DNA from: Clostridiales bacterium UBA1770
GTDB lineage: Bacteria; Bacillota; Clostridia; Oscillospirales; CAG-272
Direction of reading: 5' to 3'
NCBI GenBank assembly: GCA_002315325.1
Contig: DCGU01000054.1
Coordinates: 24,078 to 88,077, forward strand
DNA: 64,000 nt
Part shown: piece by piece, positions 4,500 through 43,539 of the stretch
How the letters are laid out: each line of letters opens with the position of its first letter
How positions within the stretch are numbered: position 1 is the first letter of the stretch
Translations under genes and position numbers: made by a program
The notes under the pieces: generated by a model
The model's database searches: none
Told to the model about the DNA's origin: nothing
What the model saw: the letters and a program-made list of their open reading frames with translations, nothing else

Positions 4500-4636
4500 T
4501 CGAATTGATTCGCCTGCAGCATAACGCTCATCATCCGAACACTCATTTCCCATTACGGGTTTATATAGTATAACATACAACCCCGCAGGATATTGGTCGG
4601 CACAGCCCGTGCCGCTTCATTATACATATGAGTAAA

Positions 4637-17420: not shown

Positions 17421-17777
17421 TTAATTCGTTAAATTACTTTTTGACGTGTTAATGGAAGAGACGAGCATGACTCTGATGCTTGCGCAGGCAAAATCAAGTG
17501 ATTTATACTCTTCCTCGGAAATATAATTCGTTTTATGTAATAATTCAAGCCAATAACCTGTTTCGTTTGCTTCTTTCAAGGCAATTTGAAGCTTTGCAAC
17601 AAAATCTGCTTTTCCGTGGGCATATTGTGCTTCACGGATGTTCGCACCGATGGAGGTACCGCTTCTGCCGATTTGATTGGAGATGACCGATTCGTGTTTT
17701 CCTTTCAAGTATTTTACCAAATTGATAATGGAAACCGCAAAATCCATAGATTGAACAGATAGCTGATCATTACGCAT
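17421..17777 (-). CDS. Four-helix-bundle protein (23S rRNA intervening-sequence protein / Avd-like family, PF05635-type)
   Basis: QIGRSGTSIGANIREAQ...AKLQIALKEANETGYWLELL is the family signature. ATG 17777 follows AAGGTGAG. The gene is visibly AT-rich relative to its neighbours. Confidence 0.85.
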   Translation of the reverse strand: MRNDQLSVQSMDFAVSIINLVKYLKGKHESVISNQIGRSGTSIGANIREAQYAHGKADFVAKLQIALKEANETGYWLELLHKTNYISEEEYKSLDFACASIRVMLVSSINTSKSNLTN

Positions 17778-17802: not shown

Positions 17803-17831
17803 ATCATAGCAAAATATAACGCTATTGTCAA
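17803..17831 (-). promoter_or_regulatory. sigma-70-type promoter for the four-helix-bundle gene
   Basis: Minus strand reads TTGACA, 17 nt, TATGAT. The -35 overlaps the outermost CTTCATT repeat. Confidence 0.5.
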
Positions 17832-18075
17832 TGAAGACACTCGCTTCGCTCGTTATTCTTTCATTAGCCTATGAAAACAATATTCGAAAGTAATTGCTTC
17901 ATTAATGAAGACACTCGCTTCGCTCGTTAATGAAGACGGTGCTGCGCACCTAATGAAGACGTGCTGCGCACTAATGAAGCGAAGTCGCCCTCGTTTCTCC
18001 CGTTCTCCCATTATCATTAGCGAAGCGTCTTCATTTCTTCATTCCTTCATTAGCCCGTAAGGGCGACTTCATTCA
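17829..18075 (-). repeat. tRNA-linked cluster of AATGAAG/CTTCATT heptamers alternating with GC mini-hairpins (cluster 1)
   Basis: 5 forward and about 6 reverse heptamers. Mini-hairpins include GGTGC-TGC-GCACC, GTGC-TGC-GCAC and GCCC-GTAA-GGGC. Exact 26-bp direct repeat at 17830-17855 and 17904-17929. Confidence 0.8.
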
Positions 18076-18116
18076 CCAAAAAAGCAGGGCAGACCTTTTG
18101 GTCTGCCCTGCTTTTT
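18074..18116 (-). terminator. Intrinsic terminator after tRNA-Leu
   Basis: Perfect stem AAAAAAGCAGGGCAGACC/GGTCTGCCCTGCTTTTTT. Confidence 0.85.
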
Positions 18117-18201
18117 TGGTGCGGGAGAGGGGACTTGAACCCCTATGGTGTTACCCACATGCACCTCAAACATGCGCGTCTGCCGGTTCCGCCACTCCCG
18201 C
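18117..18201 (-). tRNA. tRNA-Leu (anticodon GAG), CCA encoded
   Basis: Manual fold: acceptor GCGGGAG/CTCCCGC, anticodon arm CATGT-TTGAGGT-GCATG, long variable arm, T-loop GGTTCAAGTCC. Confidence 0.9.
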
Positions 18202-18211
18202 AACAAGGAAT

Positions 18212-18239
18212 ATTATACACAATTTTTCGTTTTTGTCAA
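18212..18239 (-). promoter_or_regulatory. sigma-70-type promoter for tRNA-Leu
   Basis: Minus strand reads TTGACA, 16 nt, TATAAT, about 10 nt upstream of the tRNA 5' end. Confidence 0.65.
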
Positions 18240-18248
18240 GCCGTTTTC

Positions 18249-18989
18249 TTAAAAAAGCAAGGATGCGACCGCTGCGGGAAAGGTACGGAAATCATCCACG
18301 CGAATAAAGGGGATATCCGACGTGAATACTGCCTCGTCGTTGCCGCCCTGCCCGTAATCGTCACCGACGAAAACGACCTCGTCATGGGCATAACCGTGCT
18401 CACGGCAATAACGGTCCAGTGCGTAATATTTATCATAAGGAGCGGGTGCCATATCGAAGGAAGACGAGCCGCCGACGAACACCGTATACTCGGCAAACGT
18501 GTTTTTGACGTCGTCGTAGATGGCGCGGCGGCGGGAACGGTCGGGATCAAAGGCCAGTTTATCGGCAAGGACTGCCTTCGTACCGATGATGGGGAAGGTC
18601 ACGCAGCCGGACGCGTGGAACTCCACGCTGTCGCCGGCATAGGTCAAAAAACCGTATTTTTCACGCAAAACCGTGATACGGGCGGCAACGCTGTCGCGGT
18701 CCACGGGGGCACTTTCGTCCCGTACGGGCACAAGCGTGTCGGTCACGGCATCCCAACGGCCCTCCTGCATACCGTAATTACCGATGATATCCAGGGGGAA
18801 ACGTTCCATCTGCTCGTGGATGCGGGCGACGGACCCGGCACCGACCATCAACAGACGATAACGCTGCGCCAAACGGCGCAGCGTTTCTTTGTTTTCGTCC
18901 GGCAGGTGCTGCTTATGGTTGGACAGCGTACCGTCCAGGTCAAAGGCCATCAGGCGGATTTTGCCGGCATTCTGTTCGCTAAAAATCAT
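18249..18989 (-). CDS. HAD-superfamily hydrolase (Cof/HAD-IIB-like phosphatase)
   Basis: FDLDGTL motif I and C-terminal GDDYGQGGND motif. Confidence 0.8.
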   Translation of the reverse strand: MIFSEQNAGKIRLMAFDLDGTLSNHKQHLPDENKETLRRLAQRYRLLMVGAGSVARIHEQMERFPLDIIGNYGMQEGRWDAVTDTLVPVRDESAPVDRDSVAARITVLREKYGFLTYAGDSVEFHASGCVTFPIIGTKAVLADKLAFDPDRSRRRAIYDDVKNTFAEYTVFVGGSSSFDMAPAPYDKYYALDRYCREHGYAHDEVVFVGDDYGQGGNDEAVFTSDIPFIRVDDFRTFPAAVASLLF

Positions 18990-18997
18990 TTATCCAA

Positions 18998-19579
18998 TCA
19001 GTCCTTGTGACGATAGAGCATCTTATAGGGCGTGGCGTCGTCGTTGAGCATCTGCAAAGAGTCGATGCCGAGTTCATCGATGAGCGCCTGCCAGCGTTCC
19101 TCCATACCCGTATCGTATTCCACAGGGAGGAAACCGCCGTTGACGTATCCCTTAACGGCCGGTTTACGCCAGTCGTCCGTCGTCAGTTCGATGACTTTCA
19201 CTTTGCCGGCCAAATGGGTCAGCATAATTTCCGTTAAGTACTTGGACAAACCCTTACCGCGGAAATCGGTGCGGATACCCACCATATGCATATCGCCCAT
19301 ACCGTCCTCGGCATGAACAAAGGCCGTGACCGTGCCGACGTGCTCGCCGTTATAATCAATGAAGAAAACGTCGTTGTACACGTCCAGGCCGCGGCGGCCA
19401 AACATACAGCCGTCAAAAGCACCGACGCCGGCGTCGTCACCGACCAAGCCGTTGCGGCAGCAGTCGAGCCAGCCGATTTTATCCTCTTCGCTTTTATAGT
19501 TTACAATGGAATACCCCTCGGGCAAATCGTAATGCTTAATCGGGGTACCGTCCAGCCAGTACATTTTCAATTGTGCCAT
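18998..19579 (-). CDS. GNAT family N-acetyltransferase
   Basis: FRGKGLSKYL acetyl-CoA motif. Start moved to ATG 19579 (MAQLKMY) after GGAGG. Confidence 0.75.
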   Translation of the reverse strand: MAQLKMYWLDGTPIKHYDLPEGYSIVNYKSEEDKIGWLDCCRNGLVGDDAGVGAFDGCMFGRRGLDVYNDVFFIDYNGEHVGTVTAFVHAEDGMGDMHMVGIRTDFRGKGLSKYLTEIMLTHLAGKVKVIELTTDDWRKPAVKGYVNGGFLPVEYDTGMEERWQALIDELGIDSLQMLNDDATPYKMLYRHKD

Positions 19580-31020: not shown

Positions 31021-31097
31021 GCGGCATTAGCTCAGCTGGATAGAGTGCCTGGCTACGAACCAGTAGGTCGGGGGTTCGAATCCCTTATGTCGCGCCA
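31021..31097 (+). tRNA. tRNA-Arg (anticodon ACG), CCA encoded
   Basis: Manual fold: acceptor GCGGCAT/ATGTCGC, D-arm GCTCAGCTGGATAGAGT, anticodon loop CTACGAA, T-loop GGTTCGAATCC. Collinear with E. coli tRNA-Arg(ACG). Confidence 0.9.
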
Positions 31098-31099
31098 AC

Positions 31100-31140
31100 A
31101 AAAAACACCTTTTGTCTTTTGACAAAAGGTGTTTTTTGTT
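31100..31140 (+). terminator. Intrinsic terminator after tRNA-Arg
   Basis: Perfect 17-bp stem AAAAAACACCTTTTGTC/GACAAAAGGTGTTTTTT. Confidence 0.85.
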
Positions 31141-31316
31141 GGCGAATGAAGCGCGCCTGCAGCGCATGAAAAATGAAGCAGGGCTTCGCCCCGTGAAGCG
31201 TGCCTGCGGCACACGGAGAAGTAACATTGCGCGCTTCGCTTCATAGCGGCTTTGCCGCTGCTTCATGAAAACCGTAAGGTTTTCGCTTCACGTTTGCGCA
31301 GCAAACGCTTCATTGC
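31141..31316 (+). repeat. tRNA-linked cluster of ATGAAGC/GCTTCAT motifs alternating with GC mini-hairpins (cluster 2)
   Basis: The left half carries forward AATGAAGC motifs and the right half carries GCTTCAT(T). Mini-hairpins include GTGCC-TGC-GGCAC, AGCGGC-TTT-GCCGCT, GAAAACC-GTAA-GGTTTTC and CGTTTGC-GCA-GCAAACG. Confidence 0.8.
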
Positions 31317-31390: not shown

Positions 31391-31419
31391 TTGACCGATT
31401 TTGTGAAAAAAGATATAAT
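31391..31419 (+). promoter_or_regulatory. sigma-70-type promoter for fba
   Basis: TTGACC, 17 nt, TATAAT. Confidence 0.65.
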
Positions 31420-41354: not shown

Positions 41355-43181
41355 TTATTCCACCGTCACGCTTTTGGCCAAATTTCGCGGTTTATCCACG
41401 TCGCACCCGCGCTGCACCGCAAGGCAATAGGCATAATACTGCAAAATAATGACCGCCAAAATCGGCAGCGTCATTTCGTTCGCCGCCGGCAATCGAATCA
41501 CCTCGTCGGCACAGTCCGCGGGAATCTCCATTCCCTGCCCGCACAAAAGAATCACGCGGGCACCGCGTGCCTTGACTTCCTTGGCATTGGACAGGGTCTT
41601 TTCCAAAAGTGCCGCCGACGTGGCAACGACGATACAGGGCACCCCGGGCGTAATCAGCGAAATCGTGCCGTGTTTGAGTTCCCCGGCAGCGTACGCTTCA
41701 CTGTGTACGTAAGAAATTTCCTTGATTTTTAACGCCCCCTCACAGCAAACGGCATAATCCTGTCCGCGGCCGATGAGAAACGCATCGGGAAGATTGCCGT
41801 GCTTTTCGGCAACCGCGGCCGCGCTGTCAAACAGGGCAAACGTTTTTTGCACGTCATCGGGCAGCGTTTCAAGCGCCCGGCAGAGTTCCTGCTCCCGTTG
41901 CGGGGACAACTGTCCGTTTTCATGCGCCAGGCGCAGCGCCAACAGCAGCAGCACGGCAACCTGCGCCGAATATGCCTTGGTGGTAGCCACGGCAATTTCG
42001 GGACCGGAATAGAGATAAATCACGTGATCCGCCTGTCTGGCAATGGACGAGCCAACCACGTTGACAACGGCATACGTCGGCACGCCTTTGGCCTTTGCCA
42101 GCCGCAGTGCCGCCAACGAATCGGCGGTTTCCCCCGATTGCGAAAGGATAAAAACGGCATCCCCCTGTGTAAAAATGGGATTGCCGTACCGGAATTCACT
42201 GGCAATCGCAACCGACACGGGAATGCGTGCCAACCCTTCGATGGCGTGTTTGCCCAAAAGCCCCGCATGCATGGCGCTGCCGCAGGCGACCAACGTCACG
42301 TGCTTGATCTTTTGCAGAGCGTCATTCGGTATTTCCCGCGACAAAATCTCACGAATACCGCCGGCAATACGCCCGCCGACGGCGCGACGGAGCGCTGCGG
42401 GCTGCTCCATAATCTCTTTTAACATAAAATGCGGATAACCGCCTTTTTCGGCACTTTCCTCGTCCCAATCGGCAACAATCACCTGTTTTTGCGCCGTAAT
42501 ATTCTTCCCGGTATCATCGTAAACCGTCACGCTGTCCCGCGTCACGCAGGCAATTTCGCCTGCTTCCGGCAGCAAATACCGCCGCGTGTGTGACAGGATG
42601 GCGGGGATATCGGAGGCAACAAGGTTTTCGCCCGTTCCCAAGCCCAAAATCAGCGGGCTGTCCCGCCGCACAGTCCATATTTCCCCCGGACGATCGGCAA
42701 ACAACACCGCCAGGGCATAGGAACCCTTTATCCGCTGCATGGCTGCCGTCAATGCGGCACGTGCGTCGCCCGTATACGCCTCATCCAGAACGTGCGCCGC
42801 AACCTCGGTATCGGTCTGCGACAAAAACGTACGTCCCTGTGCGAGCAGTTTTTCCTTCAGTTTTGCATAGTTTTCAATAATCCCGTTGTGCACCAGCGTC
42901 ACACGACCGCAGGCGTGCGGGTGTGCGTTCGCGTCAGACGGCTCGCCGTGCGTGGCCCAGCGCGTATGACCGATGCCGACGCACCCCCGTATGGGTTGCC
43001 CGCCGGCAATTTTATCCTTTAGGTTTGCCAGCCGCCCCTGCGCCTTTTCAACGCGTATTCCCTGCGCGGTTACAACGGCAATCCCGGCCGAATCGTACCC
43101 GCGATACTCCAATTTAGACAGTCCTTCCAATAAAATATCCGACGCTTCCTGTGCGCCGGTGTATCCAATGATTCCGCACAT
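41355..43181 (-). CDS. glmS: Glutamine--fructose-6-phosphate aminotransferase
   Basis: MCGIIGY N-terminus (start moved to 43181), two SIS domains and a C-terminal ...KSVTVE. Confidence 0.97.
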   Translation of the reverse strand: MCGIIGYTGAQEASDILLEGLSKLEYRGYDSAGIAVVTAQGIRVEKAQGRLANLKDKIAGGQPIRGCVGIGHTRWATHGEPSDANAHPHACGRVTLVHNGIIENYAKLKEKLLAQGRTFLSQTDTEVAAHVLDEAYTGDARAALTAAMQRIKGSYALAVLFADRPGEIWTVRRDSPLILGLGTGENLVASDIPAILSHTRRYLLPEAGEIACVTRDSVTVYDDTGKNITAQKQVIVADWDEESAEKGGYPHFMLKEIMEQPAALRRAVGGRIAGGIREILSREIPNDALQKIKHVTLVACGSAMHAGLLGKHAIEGLARIPVSVAIASEFRYGNPIFTQGDAVFILSQSGETADSLAALRLAKAKGVPTYAVVNVVGSSIARQADHVIYLYSGPEIAVATTKAYSAQVAVLLLLALRLAHENGQLSPQREQELCRALETLPDDVQKTFALFDSAAAVAEKHGNLPDAFLIGRGQDYAVCCEGALKIKEISYVHSEAYAAGELKHGTISLITPGVPCIVVATSAALLEKTLSNAKEVKARGARVILLCGQGMEIPADCADEVIRLPAANEMTLPILAVIILQYYAYCLAVQRGCDVDKPRNLAKSVTVE

Positions 43182-43279
43182 TATTTTCACCTTTGCCGTA
43201 TAAAAACGGCCCTTTGTCAAGTCAATAAAGCCTGCGGCATTTCGTCAGGGCGACGTTTGTCTGCAGACTTTTTCAATAT

Positions 43280-43426
43280 TCATCATTTCCGTTTGTGCCT
43301 TTGTTGGGCAATTACTTGCCGTTTTTCTCACAAACTCACGGTGAAATGATACCGAAGGGCACCCGCCGAATCTTTCGATAAACCCTTCCCTCGTCAACCG
43401 CGGTGAAATTACGGTCCCGGCGCTAT
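43280..43426 (-). ncRNA. glmS: glmS ribozyme (GlcN6P-responsive self-cleaving riboswitch) in the glmS leader
   Basis: Minus strand reads A/GCGCCGGGACC...GACGAGGGAAGGGUUUAUCGAAAGAUUCGGCGGGUGCCC...AUCAUUUC...GGAAAUGAU. This is collinear with the B. subtilis ribozyme core (AGCGCC, GACGAGG, UAUCGAA, UUCGGCGG, UGCC). The 3' boundary is approximate. Confidence 0.88.
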
Positions 43427-43539
43427 GCAATATCGTCCGCCTCACTTTTATTGTCCGGCAGTCCTGCATTCTTTTTTGCCGCGGCTTTCACTCCTTTCGA
43501 CCCGCGGTGAACGCAATCATTATACGAAATTTGTTCGTC

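Follow-up and report, generated by a model that had tools for sequence, protein, structure and literature searches.

The DNA analysed here was a stretch of 64,000 nucleotides of Clostridiales bacterium UBA1770 (contig DCGU01000054.1), referred to below as the window, and the element in question was a 247-bp tract at positions 17829-18075. The tract lies between a tRNA-Leu gene and a gene of the PF05635 protein family. An earlier note had described it, from the sequence alone, as a tRNA-linked array of AATGAAG and CTTCATT heptamers interleaved with short GC-rich hairpins. By comparison with related loci, the tract was found to be one copy of a module family of rumen and gut Clostridia, carried by Oscillospiraceae- and Ruminococcaceae-like metagenome-assembled genomes (MAGs) right after tRNA genes or the transfer-messenger RNA (tmRNA) gene.

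The module is read on the minus strand and begins at the 3' end of tRNA-Leu(gag) (18117-18201, minus strand; ARAGORN, and the Rfam tRNA model with 50 bits), whose own sigma-70 promoter at 18239-18212 on the same strand scored 12/12. A perfect palindrome resembling a bidirectional intrinsic terminator occupies 18074-18121, and its two 22-nt arms (18074-18095 and 18100-18121) are 100% complementary around a loop of 4 nt. The tRNA-side arm takes in the last five nucleotides of the tRNA (CACCA), and the array-side arm carries their complement, TGGTG. From this sequence we infer that the palindrome is the terminator ending the tRNA transcript.

The array itself consists of two mirrored arms and a centre, all described on the minus strand. 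The tRNA-proximal arm (18019-18073) holds four AATGAAG words, a GCCC-TTAC-GGGC hairpin and a conserved ACGCTTCGCT unit. It includes the 5' strand of a long-range helix (GAAGTCGCCCT, 18060-18070), which has two alternative pairing partners, the local hairpin arm and the 3' strand of the helix (AGGGCGACTTC, 17981-17991); the inverted match between the two segments was complete over 11/11 nt. A purine-rich centre (TAATGATAATGGGAGAACGGGAGAAACGAG) was located at 17992-18018. The distal arm (17904-17980) holds four CTTCATT words, and ahead of each stands either a GC hairpin or a conserved AACGAGCGAAGCGAGTGT unit. Its last unit was duplicated locally over 74 bp (17830-17903), the copy being made of a 26-nt exact repeat and 48 nt of AT-rich filler. 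The duplication was absent from about 30 related arrays, 22 of which were aligned.

On the plus strand, exact AATGAAG words start at 17830, 17904, 17929, 17952 and 17973, and exact CTTCATT words at 17897, 18029, 18037, 18045 and 18067, which makes 10 in the 247 bp. A degenerate TTTCATT stands at 17858. The GC hairpins GGTGC-TGC-GCACC (17938-17950), GTGC-TGC-GCAC (17961-17971) and GCCC-GTAA-GGGC (18053-18064), the exact 26-nt direct repeat (17830-17855 = 17904-17929), the heptamers and the long-range match were all found where the earlier note had placed them. The heptamers were spaced by 1 to 18 nt without helical phasing.

The whole window contained 22 exact heptamers, when dinucleotide shuffles gave 7.3 +/- 2.7 and none of them reached 22. 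Outside the arrays nine copies were counted against about seven expected for the window, that is, chance level. A single hairpin followed by CTTCATT at 4598-4621 was judged to be due to chance.

A density scan for TGAAG and CTTCA words revealed one other cluster in the window, which followed its only other tRNA gene, tRNA-Arg(acg) (31021-31097, plus strand; ARAGORN, Rfam tRNA). The layout was the same as in the first array. A perfect palindrome (31093-31144) with 24-nt arms and the apex TTTGTC-tttt-GACAAA takes in the last five nucleotides of the tRNA together with their complement. It is followed on the plus strand by array 2 (31145-31314), which is of the ATGAAGC/GCTTCAT type and is composed of three forward units, (A/G)TGAAGC plus hairpin, a centre, four reverse units, hairpin plus GCTTCAT, and a terminal 13-bp stem. 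No PF05635 gene is attached to it; the fba promoter (31391-31419) and then the fba gene lie downstream. Array 2 could be aligned with arrays linked to PF05635 genes at tRNA-Met, Cys, Tyr and Lys. No further array was present in the window or in the 10 kb past its left end, so that 74 kb of the genome were examined. When folded as RNA, both arrays were more stable than their shuffles (z = -2.5 for the first array and z = -3.65 for array 2), and these scores, together with the paired long-range helix, bear out that the tract can fold as a branched palindrome, as envisaged earlier.

The gene beyond the first array (17421-17777, minus strand), called IVP below, encodes a protein of 118 aa belonging to PF05635, the 23S rRNA intervening-sequence protein family of Avd-like four-helix bundles (Pfam E = 6.8e-28, above the gathering threshold). 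Its sigma-70 promoter (17803-17831, minus strand), TTGACA-17-TATGAT with TG, scored 11/12, and the -35 box overlaps the last heptamer of the array. The same scoring found no promoter inside or before either window array. The nearest solved relative of the protein was PDB 2RLD (E = 2e-32), a pentamer-type entry. At least 8000 relatives were present in public data, all with E <= 1e-5, and the best 120 were all at least 81% identical. In a published comparison the PF05635 family was equated with Avd of diversity-generating retroelements (PMC10053308).

Related loci and the grammar of the module

The sequences used for comparison were all metagenomic and mutually related, and the statistics given here are descriptive. 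Contigs of the same species were identical over both window loci, and three short-read contigs ended inside the arrays. Species-representative genomes were scanned for three spaced AATGAAG words. This pattern scan returned 120 mostly unrelated loci, among which seven related arrays were recognized in rumen and gut Clostridia MAGs; the carriers were Oscillospiraceae SIG561, Ruminococcaceae RUG11941, Clostridia RGIG6112, RGIG8031 and RGIG2773, and Lachnospiraceae HAN044. The order in SIG561 was tRNA-Asn, array and IVP (58% identical to that of the window), and in RGIG2773 it was tRNA-His, tRNA-Gln and array.

Further, a metagenome scan with two IVP proteins as queries yielded 298 relatives, and 80 loci were kept. 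Among the 48 loci with at least 520 nt of upstream sequence, 35 had a tRNA or tmRNA gene within 600 nt upstream of IVP on the same strand, at a median distance of 268 nt, and none had one on the opposite strand. A simple detector was applied to the window and to 96 loci (the four contigs of the same species, the seven loci from MAGs, the loci found through IVP, and those from fba and from the extension of the window; L numbers denote single loci) and recognized 71 arrays. Every TGAAG word stood ahead of every CTTCA word in 68 of them. A tRNA gene was found within 120 nt of 40 arrays, and most of the others were situated at contig ends. In total, 23 kinds of tRNA, and the tmRNA at L200, were followed by arrays, always in a shared orientation. 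One locus (L127) carries the same tRNA-Leu(gag) and module as the window within unrelated flanks, and in a related gut species an ordinary terminator and no array was found after tRNA-His.

The linkage to tRNA genes supposed in the earlier note was therefore real: an array accompanies each of the window's two tRNAs, none stands elsewhere in the 74 kb, and the relatives extend the linkage to the 23 tRNA kinds and tmRNA. The assumption of an isolated array did not hold, since a second copy was present in the window and both belong to a fixed palindrome-array-promoter module with an Avd-like gene usually next to it. The comparison of syntenic loci, also proposed there, was performed through fba homologues; relatives at 87% identity were not syntenic, and no pair of filled and empty sites was obtained.

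The general order of the module, conserved in more than 60 loci, was: the tRNA or tmRNA 3' end, a perfect palindrome, three or four units of heptamer plus hairpin, the purine-rich centre, three to five mirrored units of hairpin plus heptamer, a sigma-70 promoter and, usually, the PF05635 gene. An oriented unit is composed of a GC stem, a purine-rich loop, the second GC stem, GT and a CWTCAY heptamer; a single unit, hairpin plus GTCTTCATT, measures 25 nt. In the relatives, a single strong GC hairpin and the conserved ACGCTTCGCT unit accompanied the three or four heptamers of the proximal arm, and the distal arm contained three to five units of hairpin, GT and CTTCATT. The unit order of the proximal arm of the first window array recurred at L095, L065 and L125-L177. 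The long-range helix involves a copy of the 3' arm of the first hairpin (GGGCGACTTC), which can pair with the first unit (GAAGTCGCCC) over a distance of about 90 nt. Four types of heptamer were distinguished, namely AATGAAG, ATGAAGC, GTGAAGT and GTGATGC. They share the core RTGAWG/CWTCAY and are alike within any one array. The fourth type, GTGATGC/GCATCAC, was observed at L179 (3745-3900), with a TTTGTC-tacca-GACAAA palindrome, after a small PPase-like gene instead of a tRNA.

The palindrome was examined in 36 modules. Its arms had a median length of 15 nt and reached 24 nt, the loop measured 3-5 nt, and in 19 of the 36 loci the palindrome spanned exactly from the first base after the tRNA to the base before the array. 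The apex was common between loci (TTTGTC-tacc-GACAAA in 15/50, CACTTGC-gaaa-GCAAGTG in 8/50), when the lower stem was locus-specific. In both window arrays and at L183, L199 and L200 the far arm also carried the complement of the last 3-8 nt of its own tRNA; the same was seen with one mismatch at L095, L134, L136, L146 and L186, which makes at least 10 loci. The end of a tRNA is fixed by its function, and therefore this complement must have been copied in place.

Arrays following protein genes rather than tRNA genes were found at L179, L040 and L119. No IVP gene accompanied window array 2 or the arrays at L040, L065 and L119, and a few IVP genes (L152, L153) had no array. Two of these loci (L040 4300-5400 and L119 2700-3500, both from Clostridia RGIG6112) were long composite intergenic tracts, repeated within and between contigs, in which AATGAAG units were mixed with units of (A/G)TGAAAT plus hairpin, with tandem ACTATTC heptamers and with a ccttcccc-ttga-ggggaagg hairpin; within the 8-kb loci they showed no link to a tRNA.

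Of 57 relatives, 33 had a promoter of at least 9/12 in the interval from array to IVP, when 3 of 57 control segments contained one. The IVP frame was interrupted by premature stops at L134, L138, L141/L144, L175, L186 and L189/L195, which are apparent pseudogenes, and the arrays upstream of them were intact. The N-terminal residues of IVP sorted with the heptamer type, but the body of the protein did not. Co-variation of this kind gave no support for specific recognition by IVP, since sorting confined to the N-terminus would result from physical linkage alone. In modules of the GTGAAGT type, small hydrolase genes often overlapped or directly followed the IVP stop codon; they encode a PPase-like protein of 109 aa and NUDIX proteins (L147, L179, L203; L163, L165, L168, L191, L192). 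Such an arrangement suggests two-gene cargo units.

Several other interpretations of the repeats were rejected. In agreement with the earlier note, the tract was not coding: the centres of the relatives' alignment differ and share neither an ATG nor a conserved reading frame, and the unit spacing is not a multiple of three. It was also not a CRISPR array, as that note had stated, since the repeats are of 7 nt, in both orientations and separated by palindromic spacers of 1-18 nt, when CRISPR arrays have direct repeats of 23-47 nt with unique spacers of similar length. A type III toxin-antitoxin system of the ToxIN kind was ruled out by the inversion of the units between the arms, by the hairpin and T run before the array and by the four-helix bundle encoded by the gene.

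The unrelated loci of the pattern scan were mostly period-21 coding repeats or pure heptamer tandems in Bacteroidota and other groups. The period-21 AATGAAGAA repeats code for NEELQS/NEELET heptads of large proteins in Cyanobacteria, Bacteroidota and others (L005, L009, L016, L025, L037, L066 and about 30 more). Pure tandem dyads of the form (AATGAAG)n, centre, (CTTCATT)n were seen in MAGs of Prevotellaceae, Phocaeicola, Bacteroides and Acidobacteriota (L017 770-942, L019 965-1125, L028 2448-2769, L080 2447-2589, L085 3335-3511). They included the variants AATGAGG, AACGAAG and AGTGAAG and, in some cases, a central GC hairpin; no tRNA was adjacent to them, and tblastn with the window protein found no IVP homologue.

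Conserved folding, rearrangement and a proposed mechanism

The small hairpins were perfect in 214 of 271 cases, although their sequences differed. In the 22 aligned arrays the long-range helix was 92.6% paired, when slid controls reached 34-56%. One of its positions was U-A in 17 arrays, C-G in four and A-U in one, and other array types carry complementary versions of the helix of their own, which amounts to covariation between the types. The complementarity kept in this way shows either a constraint or a mechanism, and is compatible with RNA as well as DNA as the acting form. The loops were additionally compared between the arms. On one strand, purines made up 33% of the loops of the proximal arm and 62% of those of the distal arm (Fisher p = 2e-13), and GNRA loops were confined to the antisense strand in the left arm and to the sense strand in the right arm. 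Hence, each unit has a polarity of its own on its own strand. Such mirroring would be expected for oriented DNA sites and would not be needed for the folding of one RNA; it points to DNA.

Rearrangements were found within the arrays. The loci L179 (tRNA-Val) and L203 (tRNA-Ser) have only a block of 1.06 kb in common, in which IVP is 99.7% and the array 82% identical, when neither the tRNAs nor any of the flanks are related. On the left the block is joined within the array, and its right joint falls exactly where, after the PPase-like gene, the next palindrome and array of L179 (GTGATGC type) start. At L147 the middle of the array was lost by an arm-to-arm deletion, and partial or whole duplications were observed in the window and at L109, L129, L159 and L177. 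Cassette-like strings were also encountered, such as tRNA-Tyr, array, helix-turn-helix (HTH) gene, array and IVP at L129, or tRNA-Val, array, IVP, array and phosphatase at L185. The genes just downstream of the modules were small accessory ones (HTH, NUDIX, GNAT, HAD, deaminase, DUF4279) as well as housekeeping ones.

Based on these observations, we proposed that the tract is a foldback DNA module, non-autonomous and provided with a built-in terminator and promoter, which resembles the repetitive extragenic palindromes and bacterial interspersed mosaic elements (REP/BIME). A probability of roughly 40% was assigned to this proposal. The units would be recognized as folded single-stranded or cruciform DNA and would act as sites of recognition and exchange, like REP/BIME units, IS200/IS605 ends and attC sites, the acting factor being encoded elsewhere in the genome. 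Exchange at the units could copy, swap or lose the module and its cargo between tRNA loci, and the built-in terminator and promoter would render each insertion harmless to its neighbours. Template switching during replication inside the palindromes would keep the stems perfect. IVP may be a binding partner of the units or merely their usual cargo or passenger.

A bolder extension, which we regard as quite unlikely, takes the module to be the cis part of a class of cassettes for which the 3' ends of stable-RNA genes are the homing sites. The trailer RNA would begin exactly after CCA once the tRNA had been processed; a reverse transcriptase together with the Avd-like IVP would copy it and switch template to the CCA end of another tRNA or tmRNA, and recombination through the tRNA gene would plant the module behind the new tRNA. 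Alternatively, a structure-specific recombinase might swap cassettes at the hairpin-heptamer units in an integron-like manner, with the tRNA end as the anchor. If homing were true, it would explain the PF05635 genes inside 23S rRNA intervening sequences and would give a function to the large orphan PF05635 family.

Several observations weigh against the foldback DNA proposal. In 36 of 55 arrays the more stable fold was that of the tRNA-sense strand (mean -1.8 kcal/mol, Wilcoxon p = 0.004, the sequences not being independent), and mismatches in the hairpins were G:T in 21 and A:C in 11 cases. This weak asymmetry, which is not decisive, would suit a function of the sense strand as RNA or as a single strand. 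The proposal does not account for the uniformity of the heptamers within one array. No enzyme able to act on the units was encoded among about 50 open reading frames (ORFs) of the window, and the 77 genes beside the modules included one Mutator-type transposase only, with no HUH protein, integrase or reverse transcriptase. The synteny search gave no clean pair of filled and empty sites, and no target-site duplication was visible. We infer mobility from one chimeric pair plus the duplications and deletions, and near-identical modules were mostly located at the same kind of tRNA, as vertical descent predicts.

The other genes of the window were housekeeping ones (rny, tgt, mutL, mutS, miaB, ileS, glmS and others), and no transposase, integrase, RAYT or reverse transcriptase was present among the about 50 ORFs. 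A glmS ribozyme (Rfam RF00234, 86.7 bits) at 43281-43435 on the minus strand, upstream of glmS (41355-43220, minus strand), fits a Firmicutes/Clostridia origin of the window. An ORF of 291 aa on the plus strand (18135-19010) overlaps tRNA-Leu and a PMM/HAD-like gene (18249-18989, minus strand); it is most likely spurious, since the opposite minus-strand gene has Pfam support. In one human-gut strain only (L208 7614-9075, compared with L207 and L209-L214), an insertion of about 1.3 kb, carrying a dynamin/GTPase-like gene, separates the barstar gene from the 3' side of a tRNA-Gly-Arg-His cluster.

Alternative explanations

It is possible, though on balance unlikely, that the array acts as a structured RNA. 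Read-through or trailer transcripts would fold as a branched rod, in which AAUGAAG of the left arm pairs with CUUCAUU of the right arm and the GC hairpins form side branches. The rod would separate tRNA expression from the downstream gene, serving as a signal for processing, decay or insulation, and might be cut, for example, by RNase III, as are the stems of PF05635-containing 23S rRNA intervening sequences. Such a role would agree with the fold z-scores of both window arrays, the covarying long-range helix, the slightly greater stability of the sense strand and the excess of G:U over A:C. Between array types, the heptamers of both arms vary in step (AATGAAG/CTTCATT, GTGAAGT/ACTTCAC, GTGATGC/GCATCAC), as paired helices would, the arrays are co-oriented with and directly 3' of highly transcribed stable-RNA genes, and the family ties IVP to genes within rRNA intervening sequences (Pfam name; PMC10053308). 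However, a perfect long hairpin and a T run separate the tRNA from the array, inside or ahead of which there is no promoter; little transcription of the array is therefore expected. The mirrored loop composition would be needless for one RNA strand, four identical helices would leave the pairing register ambiguous, and there was no Rfam match. RNAalifold, applied to the 22 arrays, did choose heptamer-heptamer pairings, but with a covariation term of -0.34 kcal/mol, that is, with almost no covariation. A role as an operator array in double-stranded DNA was considered clearly less probable than an RNA role. The heptamers would bind a regulator, possibly the pentameric IVP itself, that controls the abutting promoter, and orphan arrays, for example the one upstream of fba, would extend this regulon to further genes. 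Nucleic-acid binding is attributed to Avd-type proteins. The overlap of the -35 box of IVP with the last heptamer, the promoters regularly following the arrays, the variety of downstream genes, the sorting of the IVP N-terminus with heptamer type and the resemblance of PF05635 to Avd (PMC10053308) would all suit an operator. It would leave the strict position at tRNA 3' ends unaccounted for and give no reason for compensatory palindromic spacers; the heptamer spacing of 1 to 18 nt shows no helical phasing, and the N-terminal sorting, which the body of IVP does not follow, is what physical linkage alone produces.

The tract could also be palindromic DNA without function, formed at a fragile or recombination-prone site past heavily transcribed tRNA genes, shaped by slippage and quasi-palindrome template switching and copied between loci by ordinary homologous recombination. 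Perfect stems and palindromes reaching into the tRNA end are products expected of template switching; local duplications and deletions were seen, and no dedicated enzyme was found among the genes beside the modules. However, the unit order and the centre, along with the long-range helix and promoter, were kept at 23 kinds of tRNA and at IVP identities down to 58%, so that drift alone would be insufficient, and this origin was judged improbable. Hardly any weight was given to a decayed att or arm-site region of an integrative element once inserted in the tRNA gene, which the earlier note had named as the case that would overturn its description. The 3' ends of tRNA genes are classical integration targets, and attP-type regions contain several arm sites in both orientations. 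Two related loci do have what look like classical integration scars, in which the 3' end of the tRNA is directly repeated: 32 nt at tRNA-Asn (L168 285-600) and 20 nt at tRNA-Met (L187 2389-2760), bounding inserts of about 190 and about 280 bp, respectively. Both inserts are located between tRNA and module, so the module was there first and is separate from them. In the window, no repeat of the tRNA 3' end accompanies either array, no copy of that end lies beyond the array, and the array is a complete conserved module. Moreover, 23 kinds of tRNA and tmRNA are beyond any single integrase, no integrase was linked among the 77 neighbours, and no match to phage or plasmid sequences was obtained.

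If the foldback DNA proposal holds, rumen and gut Clostridia carry an uncatalogued compact module of terminator, array and promoter behind many of their tRNA and tmRNA genes. The very large orphan PF05635/Avd-like family would gain a link both with a defined nucleic-acid element and with genes of stable RNAs, and its function could be tested by binding on one 25-nt unit. The module would be a new case of DNA sites specified by structure, in which a constant 7-nt word is combined with a hairpin of free sequence. Such arrays would explain the breaks of metagenome assemblies at tRNA loci in these organisms, and in annotation the tracts are easily taken for small ORFs or CRISPR-like repeats.

Comparison with known systems

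The searches revealed no Rfam family other than tRNA, the remaining terminator-hairpin hits being far below threshold, and no counterpart in phage, plasmid and viral collections; such arrays were not described in the searchable literature. The nearest known kind was REP/BIME, as suggested in the earlier note. In both, short GC-rich hairpins stand beside a short conserved single-stranded word, the repeats occur in both orientations and in intergenic clusters near terminators, the stems are maintained by compensatory changes, and an associated gene is flanked by repeats. Membership itself failed. REP/BIME units are conserved imperfect palindromes of about 20-40 nt, when here the stems vary by unit and locus and the heptamer alone is constant. 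The array has a fixed mirror symmetry instead of alternating copies, and the heptamer is at chance level outside the arrays: REP/BIME repeats are dispersed, whereas two clusters, both at tRNA 3' ends, were found in 74 kb. The attached gene encodes a four-helix bundle and not a Y1/HUH protein, and no RAYT-like gene, which the earlier note had proposed to look for, was found among the about 50 window ORFs or the 77 genes beside related modules.

The integron attC sites and cassette arrays, those without an integrase among them, resemble the module in combining variable sequence with conserved structure, in their imperfect palindromes with inverted 7-nt core words, in the small accessory genes (HTH, NUDIX, GNAT) between sites and in exchange joints at the sites. 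In contrast to the single RYYYAAC/GTTRRRY pair of attC, which lies 3' of a cassette without promoter, 7-9 RTGAWG/CWTCAY words are present per array; the array stands 5' of the gene, with its own terminator and promoter, and is anchored at a tRNA end rather than at attI. No IntI or other tyrosine recombinase was encoded in the window or among the 77 neighbours.

The intervening sequences of 23S rRNA genes in Leptospira and Coxiella contain PF05635 ORFs. They share with the module this gene, a location in a stable-RNA transcription unit and bounding inverted repeats. Here, however, the location is after tRNA or tmRNA and not in a 23S helix, no rRNA is present in the window, and the gene lies outside the body of inverted repeats and has its own promoter. 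A likeness to diversity-generating retroelements is limited to the attached protein of an Avd-resembling family (PMC10053308); neither the window nor the surroundings of the relatives contained a reverse transcriptase, a template/variable repeat pair or a target gene, and the only long direct repeat was the 26-nt duplication.

Small non-autonomous palindromic intergenic elements of the miniature inverted-repeat transposable element (MITE) kind, from Gram-positive and other bacteria, include BOX, RUP, Correia and ERIC; BOX has a variable number of subunits, and Correia elements some promoter or terminator activity. The first and last heptamers of the window arrays were inverted as in such elements, but the flanks showed no direct duplication (TGGTG vs GACAA; TGGCG vs GCCGG), and the module differs from them in its specificity for tRNA ends, in its grammar of heptamer plus variable hairpin and in the protein gene regularly attached. 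Interspersed palindromic repeats are thus a known kind; as far as the searches show, what is new here is the grammar of the units, the strict position at tRNA and tmRNA 3' ends, the palindrome copied in place from the tRNA end and the link to an Avd-like gene.

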